Of a stretch of DNA of 64,000 nucleotides, positions 23,116-33,137 are shown one piece after another. The position numbers and the translations under genes were made by a program. Within the stretch, counting starts at the first letter, position 1, and each line of letters starts with the position of its first letter. Origin of the DNA: Thainema sp. (GTDB taxonomy: Bacteria; Cyanobacteriota; Cyanobacteriia; Phormidesmidales; Phormidesmidaceae); NCBI GenBank assembly GCA_052168235.1, contig JBQLZK010000014.1, positions 1-64,000 on the forward strand, written 5' to 3'. The notes under the pieces were generated by a model, which worked only from the letters and a program-made list of their open reading frames with translations, ran no database searches and was not told the DNA's origin.

Positions 23116-24237
23116 CTAACGGAAGAAACGCCGCCTCGAGGACATGATGGAAGAAGGAGTACCCGCCGTATAAGTTGAAGTGGCCGAAACGGATGAGTGA
23201 ATGCTTGGGGAACTGCTGTTTGAAGAGCCAGGTGATGAGGTTGAGGCTGGCGGCTGGGCCGATTGATGAGGCTGGAGTGCAATACTCAGTTGCTCTCCTT
23301 TGACCACAATGTAGCCTTTCTCGGTGCGGATGTAGAGTTTGCCCCCTGTTTGGCGAACCACAGACTGCCACTCGATTGGAATGTTTGATAGATTGGCCAA
23401 TGTCGGTTCTGATGAGGAAGCAGAGAAGCTTGTGCGATCGCGATTTTGAGATGCGGATGAGGCAGAGTTCGGAATCGGGTAGTGGCTGGCACTTGGCATC
23501 CCAGAACGGCTGATCTGACTCAGTTCACTCATTGGGGTATCGCTCGCTGAGGTGGCGCGAATTTGAGTGTGACTGGTGTGAGGATTAGACGTTGGCTGCT
23601 GAGTTATGGGAGATTGCGATCGGTGGGATGTAGCTGTGGGAGCGGGTTGAGCAATCTGTTGAATGGTGTGCGGTTTAACTGGAATATTGCCTTTGCGCTC
23701 TAGCCAAACAACTTGGTCGGATCCCTGCAGCGCCATTTCCCCCACCAGGGTTTTAATAAAAAGAGTGCCCTGATTACAGGCCACATCTTGAACGGGATAC
23801 CAGTTTTCTCGGGTTCGAATCAAAAGCTGCATCTGTAAGCCTAAGTTGCGGCGCTGTCCCCGTTGCTGTGTCCACCAGGTGCGCCACATAAACCGCGCTT
23901 CCGTGAGCCGGAGCTGATAACCGTCTGGAATCGTAAGCTGCTTAAACGTCATGAACTCAGACTGCTGAACCTCTTCTTGCGGCACAAAGCCTTCATCCTG
24001 TAGCGCCTGGTTAAGCGTTAGCCAAAATTCAGATTCGCGGCGGACTGAAACGACTGAAGCTGAATCTGTATTCAAGGCATTCGTATGGGCCATTGTCGCA
24101 ACTGTGCGCCCCCTGCTATCGAGGAGTTGTCGAGCATACAGCGTTGATGTCACTCGGAGTTCAGCATTTGCCAGCAGGGTTTCCTGGTTAGTGAGGAAAC
24201 TCCGAATAATGTCCAAATTATCGAGTGTATTGCTCAT
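23116..24237 (-). CDS. Hypothetical protein with Ser/Pro-rich C-terminal half
   Basis: Long ORF, globular N-terminal half (MWRTWW, ENWYPVQD); start probably MSNTLDN. Confidence 0.7.
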   Translation of the reverse strand: MSNTLDNLDIIRSFLTNQETLLANAELRVTSTLYARQLLDSRGRTVATMAHTNALNTDSASVVSVRRESEFWLTLNQALQDEGFVPQEEVQQSEFMTFKQLTIPDGYQLRLTEARFMWRTWWTQQRGQRRNLGLQMQLLIRTRENWYPVQDVACNQGTLFIKTLVGEMALQGSDQVVWLERKGNIPVKPHTIQQIAQPAPTATSHRSQSPITQQPTSNPHTSHTQIRATSASDTPMSELSQISRSGMPSASHYPIPNSASSASQNRDRTSFSASSSEPTLANLSNIPIEWQSVVRQTGGKLYIRTEKGYIVVKGEQLSIALQPHQSAQPPASTSSPGSSNSSSPSIHSSVSATSTYTAGTPSSIMSSRRRFFR

Positions 24238-24554
24238 ATGTGCCTCAATGCTTCTCGTGTGGTGAGTGTGTGCGCAACCCGAGCGAAGTGCCGACAGTGA
24301 CACGTCTCCGTAGAATTACCCCATCTTTCTCATGGTATGTAACGCCAGCTACCAAAGGCATACGTGCTTGTGCGTAATATACCTTGACTTTTGGCGGAGA
24401 ATAAATAGGATGGGGAGAATCCTTATCGTTTCTTCAAATAATTAATCTGATTAATCCGAATTTGTGCTGAGTGCTTCTGGCTGCATAAGTGGGAATACTG
24501 AAGTGAGGGCTAGCGTCAATCTCGTGCGGTGGGGTTATGGATTTAGTGGTGGGG

Positions 24555-24640
24555 ACTGGGTGTTAGATGTGGGTGCTAGGTATTGGGTACTGGGTGCTAG
24601 GTGGTGGGTACTAGGTATTGGGTACTGGGTGCTAGGTATT
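24555..24640. repeat. Heptamer tandem repeats (gggtact/gggtgct/aggtatt), STRR-like
   Basis: gggtgctaggtattgggtactgggtgctagg repeated. Confidence 0.8.
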
Positions 24641-24805
24641 TGTCAATGTTGGTTTGGTAGGTTTTGATGGTTGACACAGCACTAGGTAATGAATGCTGTG
24701 GACTTTGGCAGAAGTACGCTTCACGCCTCACTTTTTACGCCTCACGTGTTTGATTGTTGGGCATTAATCTATGTAGCCCCGTTCTAAGAAAATTGCAGGT
24801 TGAGC

Positions 24806-26882: not shown

Positions 26883-27245
26883 TCATATTGATTCCAATCT
26901 ATCCTTTGCTTTTTTTATTTGGTGTCTCCGGCTCTAAATCTCAGCAAAAATTCAGACAAATATCGGACGAATGCCTTAATCTCAAGCGCCGAGCATATAA
27001 ACTGACAACGAGATCTGCGATCGCGCATTTCTCCCCCACGCACATCCCTCACCCACCGAAAAAATCCCGTAGGTTGCATTCACGCAGCAATTCACCGTCC
27101 CATTTGGGCTGGAGATCTGCGATCGCACCACCCCTTCCTCTATGTCTAGAACATATGCGATCTCATGTTTCGTACCCATTGAATTTGAACTGAGATCGCA
27201 AAACCTCTGCTAGCTAATATCAACCCGTTGCCATGTCACGCAAGG

Positions 27246-30200
27246 CTAATCGCTCAGCCCCAACTGCTGCTTCAGTGCTTCTGGTACACCAATAGCGCTT
27301 TCTAACCCCTGCACCCCTTCCCAGTTTGTCTGGTCATTCCAAACAATAGTTCCCTCATCGCTGGATAGGATGGCTCCGGTGAAATTAGCGTCGCGGAGAT
27401 TAGTGTCGCGGAGGTCAGCGCTGCTGAGATCGGCAGAGCGGAGGTCGGCGTAGCTGAGATCGGCGTAGCGGAGGTCGGCGTAGCTGAGATCGGCAAAGAT
27501 AAAATTGGTTTTGTTAAGGTTGGCATTGATAAGGTCGGCATTGCTGAGATCAGCAGAGCTGAGATAGACGTTGCTGAGGTTAGCGTAACGAAGTTCAGCA
27601 AAACTGAGTTTGGCTAAGATGAGTTTGGCGTTACTGAGATCAGCAAAGCTGAGATAGACGTTGCTGAGGTTAGCGTAGCTCAGATCGGCATTGCTGAGGT
27701 CGGCGGAGCTGAGTTCAGCGTAGCAGAGGTTGACGGAGTTGAGGAAGAGATAAATGCGGTTTGAAAAAGTATTTAACCCTAAACAATGGCCCATGCCCAT
27801 AAGCCTTAAGAATCGTGAATAATCGCGAGCATGGTCGTTAGGTGATTGACAGGGATGAAAAGGATATCTAGAGGGGTGCAATTTCGTATCTTCTGTCGGC
27901 TGACTCTCTTTTGAGGCAGGTAAACCAAAGCGATGGAGTTCTAGCAACAGAATCATTCCGTTGATGCCCGTGTTCATATCAACTTGGCGCTGTCCCAATC
28001 TCTCTTCTCGATGGGGCATCCGCTCTCGCAGTAGCCGCATTTTCTGTTGGGGTAAATTCTCTGGTGGTGCATCAATAAATTCGCCGTCACTCCAGCGCCA
28101 GTAAAAGTCATAGAGCCGTTTATGGAGTTTTTCTGGCTCAAATTCGGGATGTTTGATAAGCAGAGCGGTCAGATACTCCACAATCTCTGGTGACAGGACG
28201 TGGCAACCCAGCAGGTCATACATCATCCAGCAAAAAGCCGGATCATCAATATCGTACTCACGGTTGCGTCCCGGCTGACAGGCATCAATCAAGCCGTTGA
28301 CAATGCGCTCGGCGCAGAGAAATTCCCCGAAGCTTTTGTGGACAAACTCAATCGAGCCTTCTCCCTGTCGTCCTTGTTGCAGATAAAATGCAGCCAGGGC
28401 GTTGCGTAGGGGAGTGTCATCAGTTTCGAGCCGCTTTTGAGCGGCTTCCAGAAACGCTTTAGCCGAACTGTCCTGCGAAAGTCGGTCTTCAATCGCTTTG
28501 ATGCTGGCAAACTCCATACCCGACTGCACGACGCACAGTCCCGCTTCCTGCAAAATGCGCCTCAGTTGATCTGGCGCAAGTTCGGTAATGTCAAAATTCA
28601 AATTTTGCTCAGCAACTGTGTCGTTGGTCTGATCATCCCGACGATAGCTTTTGGCTCGCTGCTTGGTGAGTACCCAGTCCAGCGTACGTTCGTAAATCAA
28701 TACTTTGGCTTGCGCTCCGTCTGCACCTGCGAACGTCTCTAGCTGTAGTTCGCCATCTCGATACATTGCAGCCAGCAGATAGAGCAGCAGGGGTTCTCGC
28801 GCCAGTTCCCGCACCCGTTCTGGCAAATGCTCGTCCTGTAAAATTGCCATCAGATGAGGCTGGCCTGGCTTGATTAGATTGCCCCAGCGGTCAAACCACT
28901 GCCGCTGTAAGTCATCATCCATCGGCAAAATTTCAAGCCGAGCCAAATTGCTAGGCATCCGACTCTCAATTGATTGCAGGGCCAGCGTCCGCCCAGTAAT
29001 CAGCACGCGATGATTCTTTTCGGAGTTACGCGCACATTGTTCTTGAAACCGTCCCACCTGATCTAAAAAGCTGTCTAGACCTCCGCTGGTGCGGCCTTCC
29101 ATCAGCAGTTCATCAAAACCATCCAGAATAAATAGGAAATTAACGTTGCGATCTGTCAGCCAGCCGGAATCGGTTTTGGCAAAGTCTCGATCTACCGCTT
29201 TGGCCAGGGTTTCCTCAAAGTCTTTCGATAAAACCGCCACATCTCGCAGCCGAATCAATATCGGCGTCCAGCGAGGATGCTCATGGCGACGCACCCAGTC
29301 AGCAAACATCCGACAAAATACACTCTTGCCCCGCCCTGGCCCTCCTTGCACAAACAGGACTCGCTCTTTCTGCTCATCATCATGCAGCATCTGGCGTGCC
29401 CACTGTTCCAGCACCACAGGCTCTTGGGAAGTATCAGCTTCTCCAGCATTGGTGAGGAGCTGCGCCTTCAGCGGCACATAAATATCCTTAAAGGCAAAGG
29501 GTTCTGCAAAGACAGGGTTGAGCGGTTGGGGAGCAATCCATTCCTCTAGATATGTATCGATGCTAAGGTACTTCTCAAAAACCGCATCACCACCTACCTG
29601 ATACCATTCCGCAATACGCTGCACGCTCTTTCCAGCGTCAGCAATGGCATCCCGCAAGTGGCGATTGGTATTTTTGGCGACAATCTCCACAATCTTGACC
29701 GCCATTTCTTTAGATAAACCAAGCTGCACTAATCGAGCGCATAAAGCGCCGTTGAAAGCCACAGCCAACTTTGACTGATGAAAGTGGAGTAGAGCAAAGC
29801 GCGCGGCTTCATCGGATAACTCAAATTCCCCTAAAATTTTGACTTGGGGTGTCGCAATTTTCGCTTGAGGGCTGTTATCTTTGGCGGCAATCCATTGCCG
29901 AAACTCAGGATTTTTGTTGACTATTTGCTTAAAGCTCTCCAAATAAGCAGCCTGGCTAATTAAGGCAACCGTTTGAGATAAGGTGGGTTCTTCCTTGGTT
30001 TTTTCTAAATAGAACTTCAAGAGTCCCGTGGCAATGGACACAAATGGCAGACTCGCACCCACAATTTTGCCTAAAGGCGAATTCAGTGCATCCAGCAGCG
30101 AGTCTAGCTGCTTAATTAGAGGAGCTAATCGCTGCACATTTGGGCCTTCTTTTTGCAGCACTTCGGCCAACCCCAGCACAGCTTCGGCAGCATCTTTGCC

Positions 30201-30272
30201 ACCATCCACCGTCTCAAACGAAACAAGCTCACGAATATCAGTGGTCAAAAACTGCCAAAGACGACTCGCCAT
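27246..30272 (-). CDS. NACHT (STAND) NTPase with C-terminal pentapeptide repeats
   Basis: Walker A GGPGRGKS, Walker B FILDGFDEL, LITGR, EPLLLYL, EFVHKSFGEFL; (A/V)(D/N)L(S/R)x repeats. Confidence 0.92.
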   Translation of the reverse strand: MASRLWQFLTTDIRELVSFETVDGGKDAAEAVLGLAEVLQKEGPNVQRLAPLIKQLDSLLDALNSPLGKIVGASLPFVSIATGLLKFYLEKTKEEPTLSQTVALISQAAYLESFKQIVNKNPEFRQWIAAKDNSPQAKIATPQVKILGEFELSDEAARFALLHFHQSKLAVAFNGALCARLVQLGLSKEMAVKIVEIVAKNTNRHLRDAIADAGKSVQRIAEWYQVGGDAVFEKYLSIDTYLEEWIAPQPLNPVFAEPFAFKDIYVPLKAQLLTNAGEADTSQEPVVLEQWARQMLHDDEQKERVLFVQGGPGRGKSVFCRMFADWVRRHEHPRWTPILIRLRDVAVLSKDFEETLAKAVDRDFAKTDSGWLTDRNVNFLFILDGFDELLMEGRTSGGLDSFLDQVGRFQEQCARNSEKNHRVLITGRTLALQSIESRMPSNLARLEILPMDDDLQRQWFDRWGNLIKPGQPHLMAILQDEHLPERVRELAREPLLLYLLAAMYRDGELQLETFAGADGAQAKVLIYERTLDWVLTKQRAKSYRRDDQTNDTVAEQNLNFDITELAPDQLRRILQEAGLCVVQSGMEFASIKAIEDRLSQDSSAKAFLEAAQKRLETDDTPLRNALAAFYLQQGRQGEGSIEFVHKSFGEFLCAERIVNGLIDACQPGRNREYDIDDPAFCWMMYDLLGCHVLSPEIVEYLTALLIKHPEFEPEKLHKRLYDFYWRWSDGEFIDAPPENLPQQKMRLLRERMPHREERLGQRQVDMNTGINGMILLLELHRFGLPASKESQPTEDTKLHPSRYPFHPCQSPNDHARDYSRFLRLMGMGHCLGLNTFSNRIYLFLNSVNLCYAELSSADLSNADLSYANLSNVYLSFADLSNAKLILAKLSFAELRYANLSNVYLSSADLSNADLINANLNKTNFIFADLSYADLRYADLSYADLRSADLSSADLRDTNLRDANFTGAILSSDEGTIVWNDQTNWEGVQGLESAIGVPEALKQQLGLSD

Positions 30273-30380
30273 AGGAAAACTGCTGCAAAACTTTTACACA
30301 GCATAGCTTAGCTAATTGTTCGTTAAAGCTCTTGAAATGGTACATTGCTGCGCGAATGAACCCTATGGTTGTGGTTTCTT

Positions 30381-30515
30381 GGTTAGTATATGCGATCGCA
30401 CGGTAAGTACATTTAAATGCACAGCAAGTACGAGCGATGAATAAGCAAGTGCGAACAATTGATTAATAGGTTGAGATCATTACCAAGCAAGTACATTCAG
30501 GCGTCAAGCAAGTCA
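30381..30515. repeat. Non-coding array of a 9-bp motif (consensus AGCAAGTAC) at exact 21-bp period
   Basis: ggttagtat 30381, ggtaagtac 30402, agcaagtac 30423, agcaagtgc 30444, degenerate 30465, agcaagtac 30486, agcaagtca 30507. Confidence 0.75.
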
Positions 30516-30711
30516 CTGGGCGGTTGTGCTTCATCAACATTGCAGCTTCATTCAGCAGAGTCGATTGATGTTGCTTCCGTGAAGCTGACTTGTATTTTCT
30601 GGATCATTGAGTACATCGGGCACATTACCTTGAGAGGTAGGCGAGCCTCCACAGCCTTTCTGCTGACTCAATTTTGATTTATTTGCATACCCATCAAGGA
30701 GCACTATCACG

Positions 30712-31071
30712 ATGCCGAGTACTGATACGAGCCGCCGCTTGCGGCCTGCCTACCTCGAACAAGATATTGAATCACTACGCGGTCTTCGCACCATCCCTGA
30801 ATACGCATCAATTCGTCCCAAAACAACCATCGAAGCCCTTCAGAGTGCTTACGACGAGATGATTGCTGCTCAGGATGAAGCATCTGAAGCGATGGTGCGC
30901 GCCAAAGCCGCTGCGGATAAAGCTCGTCTTGCAGAATGGAAGTTCCATAACGATATCCTAGCCATGAAAGAGCTAGTGCGGGGAGTGTTCGGCTCCGATA
31001 GCGACGAAGCCCAAGCCGTTGGCTACAAGAAAAAATCTGAACGCAAGCGTCCTCGACGTCCGGCTGCATAA
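30712..31071 (+). CDS. Uncharacterised 119-aa helical protein with basic C-terminal tail
   Basis: RBS aaggag, Ala-rich helix, EWKFHN, FGSDSDEAQAVGYKKKSERKRPRR; hairpin downstream. Confidence 0.8.
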   Translation: MPSTDTSRRLRPAYLEQDIESLRGLRTIPEYASIRPKTTIEALQSAYDEMIAAQDEASEAMVRAKAAADKARLAEWKFHNDILAMKELVRGVFGSDSDEAQAVGYKKKSERKRPRRPAA

Positions 31072-31095
31072 GTATTAAATTTAACTTTAGGCAGC

Positions 31096-31137
31096 ATACC
31101 CCCGAGTTTTAACTAATTCGGGGGTATTCAACATATT
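31096..31137 (+). terminator. Hairpin after the 119-aa gene
   Basis: atacccccga...tcgggggtat. Confidence 0.6.
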
Positions 31138-31263
31138 CAGTAAAACAGCGATCACATGTTCAATCGCTTGCAATTTGCGATCGCAGATTTCTCAGCTAAA
31201 ATTCATGCAGAGAATGATTTGAGATTGTAGACTCAAAAGGCGAAATTGACCTGATATCATGCT

Positions 31264-32106
31264 ATGCCTTTACCCATCCAAACCATTCGCTTGCCTGACA
31301 CCTGCGATCTCATTTCTCTCTGCGGTGGCCCCTATAGCAACTTTGCGGCAGTCGAGGCGTTTTTGGCGGCAACGGAGGGGATTGAATATCGGTTTTGTCT
31401 GGGCGATATTGGCGGTTTTGGGCCACATCCCAATCGCACGATTGAGTTACTGCGACAGGCTAATGTGATTTGTCTCCAGGGCAATTATGATCACGCTGTC
31501 GGGGCGGGTGAACCGGAGTGTGGCTGTGGGTATGTGGACAGTCGAGATCGCGAATTTGCTCAGATTAGCTATGACTACACGCTGGCGCATACGGCGGAAC
31601 ATCATCGGCAGTGGATGCAAACGCTGCCCTCGCTGATTCGGCTAGAGTGGCGCGATCAGGCAGTTTTGCTCTGCCACGGCAGTCCTCGACAGGTGAATGA
31701 ATTTGTGTGGCAGTCCGAGACAGACGATGCACGCATTCGGGCAGATTTAGCGGAATTTGATGTCGTTGGCATTTGCGGCACGCATTCCGGCATTCCCTGG
31801 CTGCGAACGGTGGGCAATGCGGGGTTCTGGTGCAATGTTGGTGTACTGGGACGACCAGCTCATGACGGGACTGCGGCGGTTTGGTATGGGATACTGAATT
31901 TTCCGGCTGAAGCGGAACGACCAACGCCAAAGCTGATGCGCTTAACCTACGACGTGGCGGCAGTTGTGGAAGCCATGCAGCAGGAAGGACTGCCGCGTGA
32001 GTTTTGGCAGTCGCTAGAGCAAGGCATCTGGACAACCTGTGCCACGGTGCTGCCAGAGGCTGAACAGCCGGTGCAGCCGCGAGTTGAGGCTTTATCGAGA
32101 AAGTAG
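31264..32106 (+). CDS. Calcineurin-like metallophosphoesterase (Cys-rich variant)
   Basis: CLGDIGGFGP, QGNYD, CGCGY, CHGSP, GTHSG, WTTC; first motif is atypical (GGPYSN). Confidence 0.8.
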   Translation: MPLPIQTIRLPDTCDLISLCGGPYSNFAAVEAFLAATEGIEYRFCLGDIGGFGPHPNRTIELLRQANVICLQGNYDHAVGAGEPECGCGYVDSRDREFAQISYDYTLAHTAEHHRQWMQTLPSLIRLEWRDQAVLLCHGSPRQVNEFVWQSETDDARIRADLAEFDVVGICGTHSGIPWLRTVGNAGFWCNVGVLGRPAHDGTAAVWYGILNFPAEAERPTPKLMRLTYDVAAVVEAMQQEGLPREFWQSLEQGIWTTCATVLPEAEQPVQPRVEALSRK

Positions 32107-32161: not shown

Positions 32162-32221
32162 AAAAGGATTGACATTGATGTTGCAAACAAAAGGATTGAC
32201 ATTGATGTTGCAAACAAAAGG
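32162..32221 (+). repeat. Exact 27-bp tandem duplication over the phnD start
   Basis: aaaaggattgacattgatgttgcaaac x2, followed by aaaagg. Confidence 0.9.
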
Positions 32222-33137
32222 TTTGTTCAAAGGACTGCTGCTCGGGTTGGCAGCTTTATTCCTGGTAGTGGCCTGTAATTCTGGCTCCACGGTGAATACA
32301 GGCTCTGGAGAGGATGCTGAACTGACGGTACTCAAGTTTGGCGTTGGCCCCTATTTTCCGACACCGAATGAAACCGCTGACCAGTTTGAGCCGCTGTTCC
32401 AGGCATTAGCTGAAGAAGTGGGCGTAGAAGCCGAAGTGACCGTCACCGAAGACTGGGTTGGTATCTCAGAAGCGCTGCGCTCTGGAACGCTTGATGCGGC
32501 TTGGTTGGGGCCGTGGGGCTATGTGTTAGCTAATCACAATGAGCCTGCCATTAATGCGATCGCAACTGTGAAGTATAAAGAGCAGCCCTTTTACTATTCG
32601 GTGCTGATGGCGAAAGCGGATGCGCCCTTTGACACGCTGGATGAGGCGATTGAGCTGAGCCAGTCCGGTGAAAAGCTCAGCATTAGCTTGGCCGATGTTG
32701 GCTCAACCTCTGGTTGGCTGATTCCCACTGCCGAGTTTACCCAGCGCGGCATTGATCCTAAAGAAGTGTTTGAATACAGCGAAGGTGCTAGCCACGCAGC
32801 CCAAGCGATCGCAGTTTTGAGCGATCAGGTGGATATTGCTTCAGATTACGATCGCAACTTGGACGTACTGGAAGCTACCGAGCGGATCAACAAAGACGAC
32901 CTCAAGATCATCTGGCAATCCGATCCGCTGCCCAATGACCCAATTGCGATTCGGGGTGGACTACCGGAGGATATTAAGACGAGGCTACAGGAGGCGCTAG
33001 TGAACCTCAGTGCAGAAGATGCAGCTCAGGGTTTACTACCAGAGAACTACACGGGTTTTGTCGCCTCCGACGGCAGCAACTACGAGCCAATTCAGGCGGC
33101 GGGCAAGCTGGTCGGCAAGCTGGATGAAGCATCCTAA
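32178..33137 (+). CDS. phnD: Phosphate/phosphite/phosphonate ABC substrate-binding lipoprotein
   Basis: Lipobox VVAC, AWLGPWGYV, YYSV, STSGWLIP, SHAA, SDPLPND; start ATG at 32178 or 32205. Confidence 0.85.
   Translation: MLQTKGLTLMLQTKGLFKGLLLGLAALFLVVACNSGSTVNTGSGEDAELTVLKFGVGPYFPTPNETADQFEPLFQALAEEVGVEAEVTVTEDWVGISEALRSGTLDAAWLGPWGYVLANHNEPAINAIATVKYKEQPFYYSVLMAKADAPFDTLDEAIELSQSGEKLSISLADVGSTSGWLIPTAEFTQRGIDPKEVFEYSEGASHAAQAIAVLSDQVDIASDYDRNLDVLEATERINKDDLKIIWQSDPLPNDPIAIRGGLPEDIKTRLQEALVNLSAEDAAQGLLPENYTGFVASDGSNYEPIQAAGKLVGKLDEAS

Follow-up and report, generated by a model that had tools for sequence, protein, structure and literature searches.

In a 64,000-nucleotide stretch of Thainema sp. 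DNA (positions 1 to 64,000 of contig JBQLZK010000014.1, forward strand, hereafter the window), an array of short non-coding words repeated with a 21-bp period stands upstream of a gene for a 119-residue (119-aa) protein, and we find that the array and the gene are one conserved unit, travelling together. That the two may belong together had been suggested in a preliminary description of this DNA made from the window alone, and the suggestion is borne out by the periodicity of the gene flanks in two protein families. From the sequence comparisons we give an even chance to the reading that this protein, a coiled coil ending in a basic tail, attaches cooperatively to the phased array in front of its gene, and thereby regulates its own gene and controls the divergent promoter region; the protein as the binder, the DNA as the target and the effect on transcription are what we infer. 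The array and the gene are laid out in the window as follows.

30381 to 30515, plus strand: array of 21-bp period with seven registers, defined by in-register words, and unrelated 12-bp spacers.
30381, plus strand: register word GGTTAGTAT, 5/9 to AGCAAGTAC, decayed.
30402, plus strand: register word GGTAAGTAC, 7/9 to AGCAAGTAC, decayed.
30423, plus strand: register word AGCAAGTAC, 9/9, exact.
30444, plus strand: register word AGCAAGTGC, 8/9 to AGCAAGTAC.
30465, plus strand: register word AATAGGTTG, 4/9 to AGCAAGTAC, core lost.
30486, plus strand: register word AGCAAGTAC, 9/9, exact.
30507, plus strand: register word AGCAAGTCA, 7/9 to AGCAAGTAC.
30712 to 31071, plus strand: gene for the 119-aa protein, recognised from homologues and codon-position substitutions.

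The linkage of array and gene was analysed in a collection with one genome per species, in which 408 of 443 candidate stretches were confirmed and the best 80 of the 408 loci were kept. The period of each locus was taken as the shift between 7 and 69 bp that gave the highest self-identity in any 105-bp segment, and the counts that follow are those of this single statistic, devised for this analysis, with the flanks as controls. Within 700 bp upstream of the gene, the best period was 21, 42 or 63 bp (±1) in 66/76 loci, 61 of them with self-identity of at least 55%, as against 8/76 loci, none with at least 55%, within 700 bp downstream (Fisher p 1e-22 for the upstream linkage in this first family). 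A far-upstream control, 1.7-2.4 kb from the gene, gave 16/66 loci with a best period of this kind, 2 of them with at least 55%, and the loci taken from the genomes of relatives exhibited the same upstream-array pattern. A search for a periodic motif in the homologue flanks, the check that the preliminary description itself had proposed, thus came out in favour of the unit. The array periods observed (20, 21, 41, 42 and 63 bp) are whole numbers of DNA turns; the 41-bp period was found in eight loci at 75-99% identity, and many arrays consist of 41/42-nt units at 0.9-1.0 identity. Among the closest orthologues, homology begins 20-70 bp upstream of the array and stops after the gene, with unrelated flanks beyond, and because homology is confined to these limits the length of the unit is set at about 0.8-0.9 kb.

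In the window itself, AGCAAGT(AC) shares one 21-bp register at 30423, 30444, 30486 and 30507, and these account for 4 of the 6 plus-strand copies of AGCAAGT in the whole 64 kb (the minus strand carries 5). Self-identity of the segment 30381-30528 peaks at shift 21 (0.49), and four in-register exact 7-mers were reached in 1/5000 first-order Markov shuffles of the 439-bp spacer, in good agreement with the initial description of 21-bp-period cores separated by unrelated 12-bp spacers. The cores of the window array are retained and its spacers decayed. Tandem Repeats Finder did not report the array, as is expected because just 9/21 positions are kept between units. A pair of array words at 21-bp spacing, searched with 0 mismatches, found the window array as its sole site in the 7.54-Mb genome. 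The statement that the array is not a peptide repeat also held, as stops are present in six of six frames across 30381-30527 (1-4 per frame); these stops, together with the arrays of 41-bp period in the eight loci, rule out a decayed heptad-repeat or peptide-repeat gene, 41 not being a multiple of 3. The array does not have the make-up of a CRISPR array, where repeats of at least 23 bp are set apart by unique spacers about as long and accompanied by cas genes, as it consists of a 9-bp core and 12-bp spacers with no cas gene adjoining the unit and no Rfam match, the Rfam search at E<=1 giving zero matches in 30200-31300. The highly iterated palindrome HIP1 (GCGATCGC), typical of cyanobacteria, occurs in 76 copies in the 64-kb window, with one site in the array region (30393-30400); in some orthologous arrays (L043, L050) a HIP1 site lies in the spacer part of each 21-bp unit.

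The gene at 30712-31071 is real, to judge from its substitution pattern: eleven orthologues align gap-free along 357 nt, with third codon positions accounting for 63% of the differences. AlphaFold2 predicts an all-helical protein (pLDDT, the predicted local distance difference test score, 88) in which the N-terminal arm, TSRRLR, is basic and is followed by helix 12-25, a long helix at 40-93, a short helix 98-102 and the tail KKKSERKRPRR; the long helix and the basic tail had been noted earlier from the translation. In the monomer model the basic arm, residues 1-11, is unstructured ahead of helix 12-25, and no ribbon-helix-helix was detected. The protein carries the motif G-x-(F/Y)-G-S-D-S-x-E-A-Q-A-x-G. 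An R-x6-H motif of HEPN-like kind (R72...H79) was considered and dropped because the sister family described below does not keep it. We collected 168 homologues, every named one of which is cyanobacterial (the named relatives of the gene are from Nodosilinea, Leptolyngbya and Nostoc), and 558 clusters (50% identity) at E<=1e-3 among 1.84 billion representatives, nearly all of about 120 aa; the protein atlas gave unnamed clusters alone, and ten distant cluster representatives added no names beyond Cyanophyceae. The protein had no match in Pfam (E<=0.01), NCBIfam, PADLOC or PDB sequences, nor any at E<=0.001 with Foldseek against PDB; matches in PHROGs were weak (best E 0.0078, to a family of unknown function), and a wide VIA-align search returned generic coiled coils alone (Z about 5). 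The sequence, structure and literature searches together found no family, structure or paper covering the protein or the array-gene unit.

A whole-genome periodicity scan detected mostly coding repeats, but contigs 3, 12 and 96 each yielded one more non-coding array of the 21-bp family. Downstream of those on contigs 3 and 96 stands, in each case, a gene for a protein of about 125 aa belonging to a sister family. Its N-terminus is basic, and there follow a short helix, a second one about 54 residues long, the motif ...YG-x-DS-x-EYQMAGG... and a basic tail; AlphaFold2 places its helices at 7-23, 37-90 and 95-99, as compared with 12-25, 40-93 and 98-102 in the window protein. In a profile-profile comparison with hhalign, 32 C-terminal columns alone align (E 5e-5, probability 66.5%), and therefore any relationship between the two families must be distant; from this short motif and the shared predicted build, the sister family is probably a distant relative of the window protein. 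Of 61 genomes of the taxonomic family, 23 contain it, a single genome having as many as 12 copies, and its loci carry a 21/42/63-bp array upstream in 23/28 cases and downstream in 4/29. A precomputed Pfam tag (PF25887) on some sister-family relatives did not reappear in a fresh Pfam scan.

The individual loci of the Thainema genome are as follows. On contig 3 (131642-132573; L125/L130), a 21-bp array with the words CTGCAACGCTTCCCGACAAGT / CTGTTGTTGCAGAGAAGT is followed by a 128-aa sister-family protein, with a KAP-family NTPase gene divergent on the array side and a ResIII/SNF2 helicase gene convergent downstream. On contig 12 (99978-100213; L126) an orphan array carries the contig-3 words with no family gene alongside, and an unrelated 93-aa open reading frame (ORF) begins 345 bp downstream; this orphan may be a second target of the contig-3 protein. 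On contig 96, an array of 63-bp (3 x 21) period at 242-452 precedes a sister-family gene at 809-1190 (MARRKRTSNVLQ...). On contig 1 (105661-105843; L127) there is a fragment of the window family (profile positions 49-109), broken by two TAG stops, with no periodic array upstream (best period 25, identity 0.42).

The words of the arrays are common within protein subfamilies, also across different genomic sites, and differ between subfamilies, the period being kept throughout. Paralogues in one genome carry different words, as in the pairs L087/L108, L088/L102 and L075/L112. The period is kept across two families with hardly any sequence similarity left, and the words follow the protein subfamilies, which suggests that an array and the protein made from its own gene are under a mutual physical constraint. 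In the window subgroup the core is AAGCAA(G/T)(T/C)RC in constant orientation to the gene, and the last unit is mostly ...AAGTAC. In two close orthologues, L010 (-214..-166 from the start codon) and L011 (-197..-176), an inverted copy directly follows the last array unit (GAAGCATATC...GATATGCTTC; AGCAAGT...ACTTGCT), of which a trace alone is seen in the window. Arrays of other subfamilies include many palindromes built from CATT/AATG half-sites, for example ACAATGcCATTGT, GCATTcacAATGC and ACATTacgAATGT. Exact inverted arms of at least 5 bp were found within the unit of 43/64 arrays, and among these 43 there are 30 with a spacer of 0-3 nt between the arms and 16 with one of 0-2 nt. As judged from sequence, such short spacers fit a symmetric dimer on duplex DNA better than RNA hairpins, and on this ground symmetric oligomers on double-stranded DNA are proposed. 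In the whole-genome word search, which covered two genomes, the window's (7.54 Mb) and a 9.8-Mb Scytonema genome (L111), the array was found only at its cognate gene in both.

Between the array and the gene, and just past the gene, the following features were recorded.

30516 to 30711, plus strand: non-coding leader or putative promoter region, conserved in an alignment of 14 loci, with the blocks GCTTCA and CTTCAT and the motif GGGCACATT at 30618-30626.
30543 to 30587, plus strand: inverted repeat cagcttca/tgaagctg, for which pairing is possible in the window only.
30696 to 30701, plus strand: Shine-Dalgarno-like AAGGAG, 10 nt before the ATG; GGAGCA is kept in orthologues.
31094 to 31129, plus strand: terminator-like hairpin past the stop codon, with a weak T tract (minimum free energy -21.3 kcal/mol).

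The leader, about 190 bp long, accumulates substitutions without 3-base periodicity, for which reason a minus-strand ORF over it (30552-30710, 52 aa) was dropped. A family-wide motif (GGGCACATT / TAATGGGCACATTAAA) is located 36-100 bp before the start codon, with the array upstream of it; in Nostoc-type loci it stands 36-37 bp before the ATG, within TTACTGTTAG-N12-TAATGGGCACATTAAA. GGCACA is found within 260 bp upstream of the start in 44/79 loci, and one-base variants are visible in most others. This block is a putative promoter/operator. RNAalifold gave no conserved RNA fold in the leader (-6.97 kcal/mol, covariation term -0.17, 1/17 pairs compensatory). The earlier remark that cagcttca and tgaagctg can pair is correct for the window. 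Relatives do not retain this pairing: depending on the base pair, it is preserved in 2 to 11 of the 11 relatives aligned, and compensatory changes number zero. As to the small gene having its own ribosome-binding site and terminator, the AAGGAG supports the first, whereas the hairpin is not conserved and was not called a plus-strand terminator in the consensus scan; as a conserved RNA element the hairpin was rejected on the same ground.

Taking these observations together, we propose that the unit would consist of an array of 5-14 binding sites two DNA turns apart, the putative promoter/operator block and the gene for the small coiled-coil protein. The 119-aa protein would bind its own array as a dimer or higher oligomer formed via the long helix, one oligomer per 21-bp unit and all on one face of the helix, and so give rise to a cooperative nucleoprotein stretch. 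Binding would set the level of the protein itself, and the bound stretch would close or open the shared spacer and thus control the divergent gene, in the window that of the NACHT NTPase. The direct repeats of the window subgroup would imply head-to-tail binding, as in BldC of Streptomyces, which is described in PMC5859096 as a 68-aa MerR-like protein forming cooperative multimers on a variable number of direct repeats, with an extended filament as the result. The likeness lies in the very small size of the protein and in the cooperative direct-repeat filament that is proposed here. BldC differs in that its winged helix is of MerR type and that it controls many promoters as a regulon; the 119-aa protein has no MerR match in Pfam (E<=0.01, and even E<=10), a long coiled coil with a basic tail, and an array that is unique in the two genomes searched. 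Of the two mechanisms that the preliminary description had offered, DNA binding is the one we favour, by inference from the phasing, the palindromic cores and the absence of a conserved leader fold, while a processed repeat RNA is not supported.

Several observations weigh against this proposal. No recognised DNA-binding domain was found in the 119-aa protein by Pfam, NCBIfam, PDB-sequence or Foldseek searches, and a scan for the sigma-70 consensus found no plus-strand promoter in the spacer. The arrays of the window subgroup are direct, non-palindromic repeats, so that at least two binding geometries would be needed, and 10/76 loci have no best period of the 21-bp family, some of them with weak traces alone. 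Conservation of the protein is highest in its C-terminal half, yet the words of the arrays differ greatly, and for this reason the specificity would have to sit in the more variable N-terminal 40 residues. Other systems offer partial precedents: according to PMC2995052, the P2 C repressor binds non-palindromic direct repeats, and according to PMC8481266, RemA has no obvious DNA-binding motif and yet binds repetitive DNA of poor conservation. Both differ from the present protein in fold and in having few sites, and 5-14 phased units linked to the protein's own gene are found with neither.

The same conservation pattern would suit an alternative that we consider unlikely, in which the array serves as a cis element read by a different host factor, or works purely through DNA shape, with phased bends upstream of the promoter, and the protein performs a separate job via its C-terminal motif. 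In its favour, specificity would need to vary outside the most conserved part of the protein, the searches gave no DNA-binding fold, and the array on contig 12 (99978-100213) has no family gene alongside. A common host factor would not permit the turnover of words between paralogues in one genome, however, and arrays are linked to the gene in both families, which have a C-terminal motif alone in common; that words are kept in protein subfamilies across different genomic sites also speaks against this alternative.

An RNA-based unit, in which the array is transcribed and its RNA is bound, perhaps processed, by the small protein in the manner of type III toxin-antitoxin or protein-sponging RNAs, is in our estimate quite unlikely. 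Type III toxin-antitoxin loci (ToxIN and relatives) consist of a tandem repeat array upstream of one protein gene, form diversifying cognate pairs and occur in defence neighbourhoods; their toxins are beta-rich endoribonucleases of about 170 aa. The layout here, with the array directly upstream of a small gene, is alike, and in favour also count the many 41/42-nt units of 0.9-1.0 identity, the array unique to its own gene in both genomes searched, its fixed orientation to the gene in the window subgroup, and the multi-copy (up to 8 and 12 per genome), diversifying units often near PIN, PemK, HepT, Uma2 and TIR genes. Against this stand the window units, which keep only 9/21 positions, and the 16/43 palindromic arrays whose spacers of 0-2 nt leave them unable to form hairpins. 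The promoter-like, family-wide block lies between the array and the gene, and farther than about 70 bp upstream of the array nothing is conserved. Neither a conserved fold of the leader nor an Rfam match was found, and the protein matches no nuclease or RNA-binding family. The comparison with type III systems fails likewise at the protein, a 119-aa helical one with no ToxN/AbiQ/CptN-type match (Pfam, PADLOC), and at units as degenerate as the 9/21 kept positions here.

A plasmid-type element settled on the chromosome, either a centromere and the protein that binds it or an initiator and its iterons, is very improbable. The iterons of theta plasmids, which go with the Rep initiator, are direct repeats of about 22-bp period with sites on one face, and the promoter of the neighbouring gene often carries an inverted copy; the parC repeats of pSK41 are spaced by about 20 bp; the period near 20-22 bp, the cognate small gene beside the array and the diversifying pairs of the present unit recall both. 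The inverted copy after the last unit in the two close relatives (L010, L011) is a further likeness to iterons, and a small protein gene adjoining its own regularly spaced repeat array is one to ParR/parC of type II plasmid partition, for which PMC9426499 describes ParMRC families of ParR/parC pairs with different specificities. However, no ParM gene was found among the 73 upstream and 76 downstream neighbours of the unit, no partition ATPase or Rep gene is conserved beside it, and the 119-aa protein is without winged-helix Rep domains. The unit is chromosomal and multi-copy, with loci in chromosomes of 7-9 Mb, up to 8 copies per genome in the window family and up to 12 in the sister family; plasmid records contained a relative in 1/72,556 cases, a 1-Mb Nostoc replicon, and phage records and viral contigs contained none. 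Neutral simple-sequence DNA of the short tandemly repeated repetitive (STRR) kind, or a decayed heptad-repeat gene, is strongly disfavoured and hardly credible, for even if cyanobacterial spacers are rich in short tandem repeats and the window has a heptamer tract at 24546-24673, the window array has stops in six frames, and the arrays include 41-bp periods and show no 7- or 14-bp sub-period (mean identity over 65 arrays 0.22 at shift 7, 0.24 at shift 14 and 0.56 at shift 21, which rules out STRR-type heptamers), the window cores are kept where the spacers decayed, and position and period are kept across two distant families.

That heptamer tract, G/T-rich and of STRR type (GGGTGCT, AGGTATT, GGGTACT), lies upstream of a 539-aa ORF at 24800. 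Elsewhere in the window, a 27-bp tandem repeat (32162-32225; 2.4 copies, 97% identity) extends over the start of a 322-aa ORF (32169-33137), the first nine residues of which are therefore duplicated. A separate element of 41-bp period, unrelated to the small-protein units, is present in the genome in three copies, on contigs 41 (2323-2518), 71 (30757-30938) and 80 (24211-24414), with a hairpin in each unit (CTGCCTAATCACCC...GGGTGTTAGGCAG); all copies are within about 2.5 kb of a contig end, and two within about 250 bp.

The unit of the window lies beside or within the following features.

27246 to 30272, minus strand: divergent gene for a 1008-aa NNH3-NACHT-pentapeptide-repeat protein (STAND NTPase), with Pfam matches to NNH3 (7e-51), NACHT (7e-8) and Pentapeptide (3e-29).
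26986 to 31227, no strand assigned: 4.24-kb stretch absent from a genome of the same genus (G001), found by blastn of G001:C81 against the window.

The start of the NACHT gene is 109 bp from the array. Its assignment as a divergent NACHT NTPase, made at the outset from the translation, agrees with the Pfam domains, and no PADLOC model matched the protein. Within the 4.24-kb stretch lie the NACHT gene and the array, along with the small gene and its downstream hairpin; G001 joins window position 26985 directly to 31228 with 9 overlapping bases, and the joints form an imperfect 9-bp direct repeat (TAATCTCAA / TAGACTCAA). This difference may be an insertion in the window or a loss in G001. A Tn7-like transposon end was considered and dropped, as one locus adjoins glmS and the other sites differ.

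No neighbour gene is conserved, and the neighbours vary from locus to locus. Nevertheless, divergent genes for STAND, TIR or abortive-infection (Abi)-type ATPase proteins were found among 13/73 upstream neighbours, in contrast to 2/76 downstream (Fisher p 0.002, a value overstated because the loci are related). The 13 upstream genes code for TIR, LRR-Roc-COR, NB-ARC-TPR, DUF7779-TPR, CHAT-AAA_16-TPR, two NACHT and TIR-PNP proteins, a 1030-aa TPR protein, three AAA_15/21 or SMC-like ATPases and an AAA_5 protein, while the other downstream neighbours are mostly housekeeping genes; two further loci, of the sister family, face LRR proteins. The suggested link to STAND proteins is thus recurrent but not obligatory, most loci having other neighbours. 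Several close orthologues share the same downstream gene (ABC1 kinase) and differ in the array-side gene, and because of this the array side is taken as the variable side. The family is often located near genes of toxin-antitoxin or defence type (PIN, PemK, HepT, Uma2, TIR).

A broader proposal is tentative, and we hold it as doubtful: filamentous cyanobacteria would contain a large unnamed class of self-contained chromosomal units of array and coiled-coil protein, forming locus-specific nucleoprotein filaments. Placed at the edges of variable islands with the array facing the island, such units would privately switch or silence conflict genes of recent acquisition, and the paralogues would be insulated from each other by their own words. 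The genes so controlled may include those for NACHT, NB-ARC, Roc-COR and KAP NTPases and for TIR proteins. The logic of a small protein with its own phased array of sites is known from iterons, plasmid centromeres and a few regulators; distinctive here is an unusually large family that is chromosomal, multi-copy and, among named records, confined to mostly filamentous cyanobacteria. If the proposed binding is true, the family would be a new one of DNA-binding, or at least array-bound, proteins without a recognisable binding domain, and as each member brings its natural target site, specificity and cooperative assembly would be easy to study. The diversified words might provide sets of non-cross-reacting regulator/operator pairs for cyanobacterial engineering. 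To our knowledge, the control of the very large sets of NLR-like proteins in multicellular cyanobacteria is poorly understood, and the position of the array side beside STAND, TIR and Abi-type genes would offer a testable handle on it.

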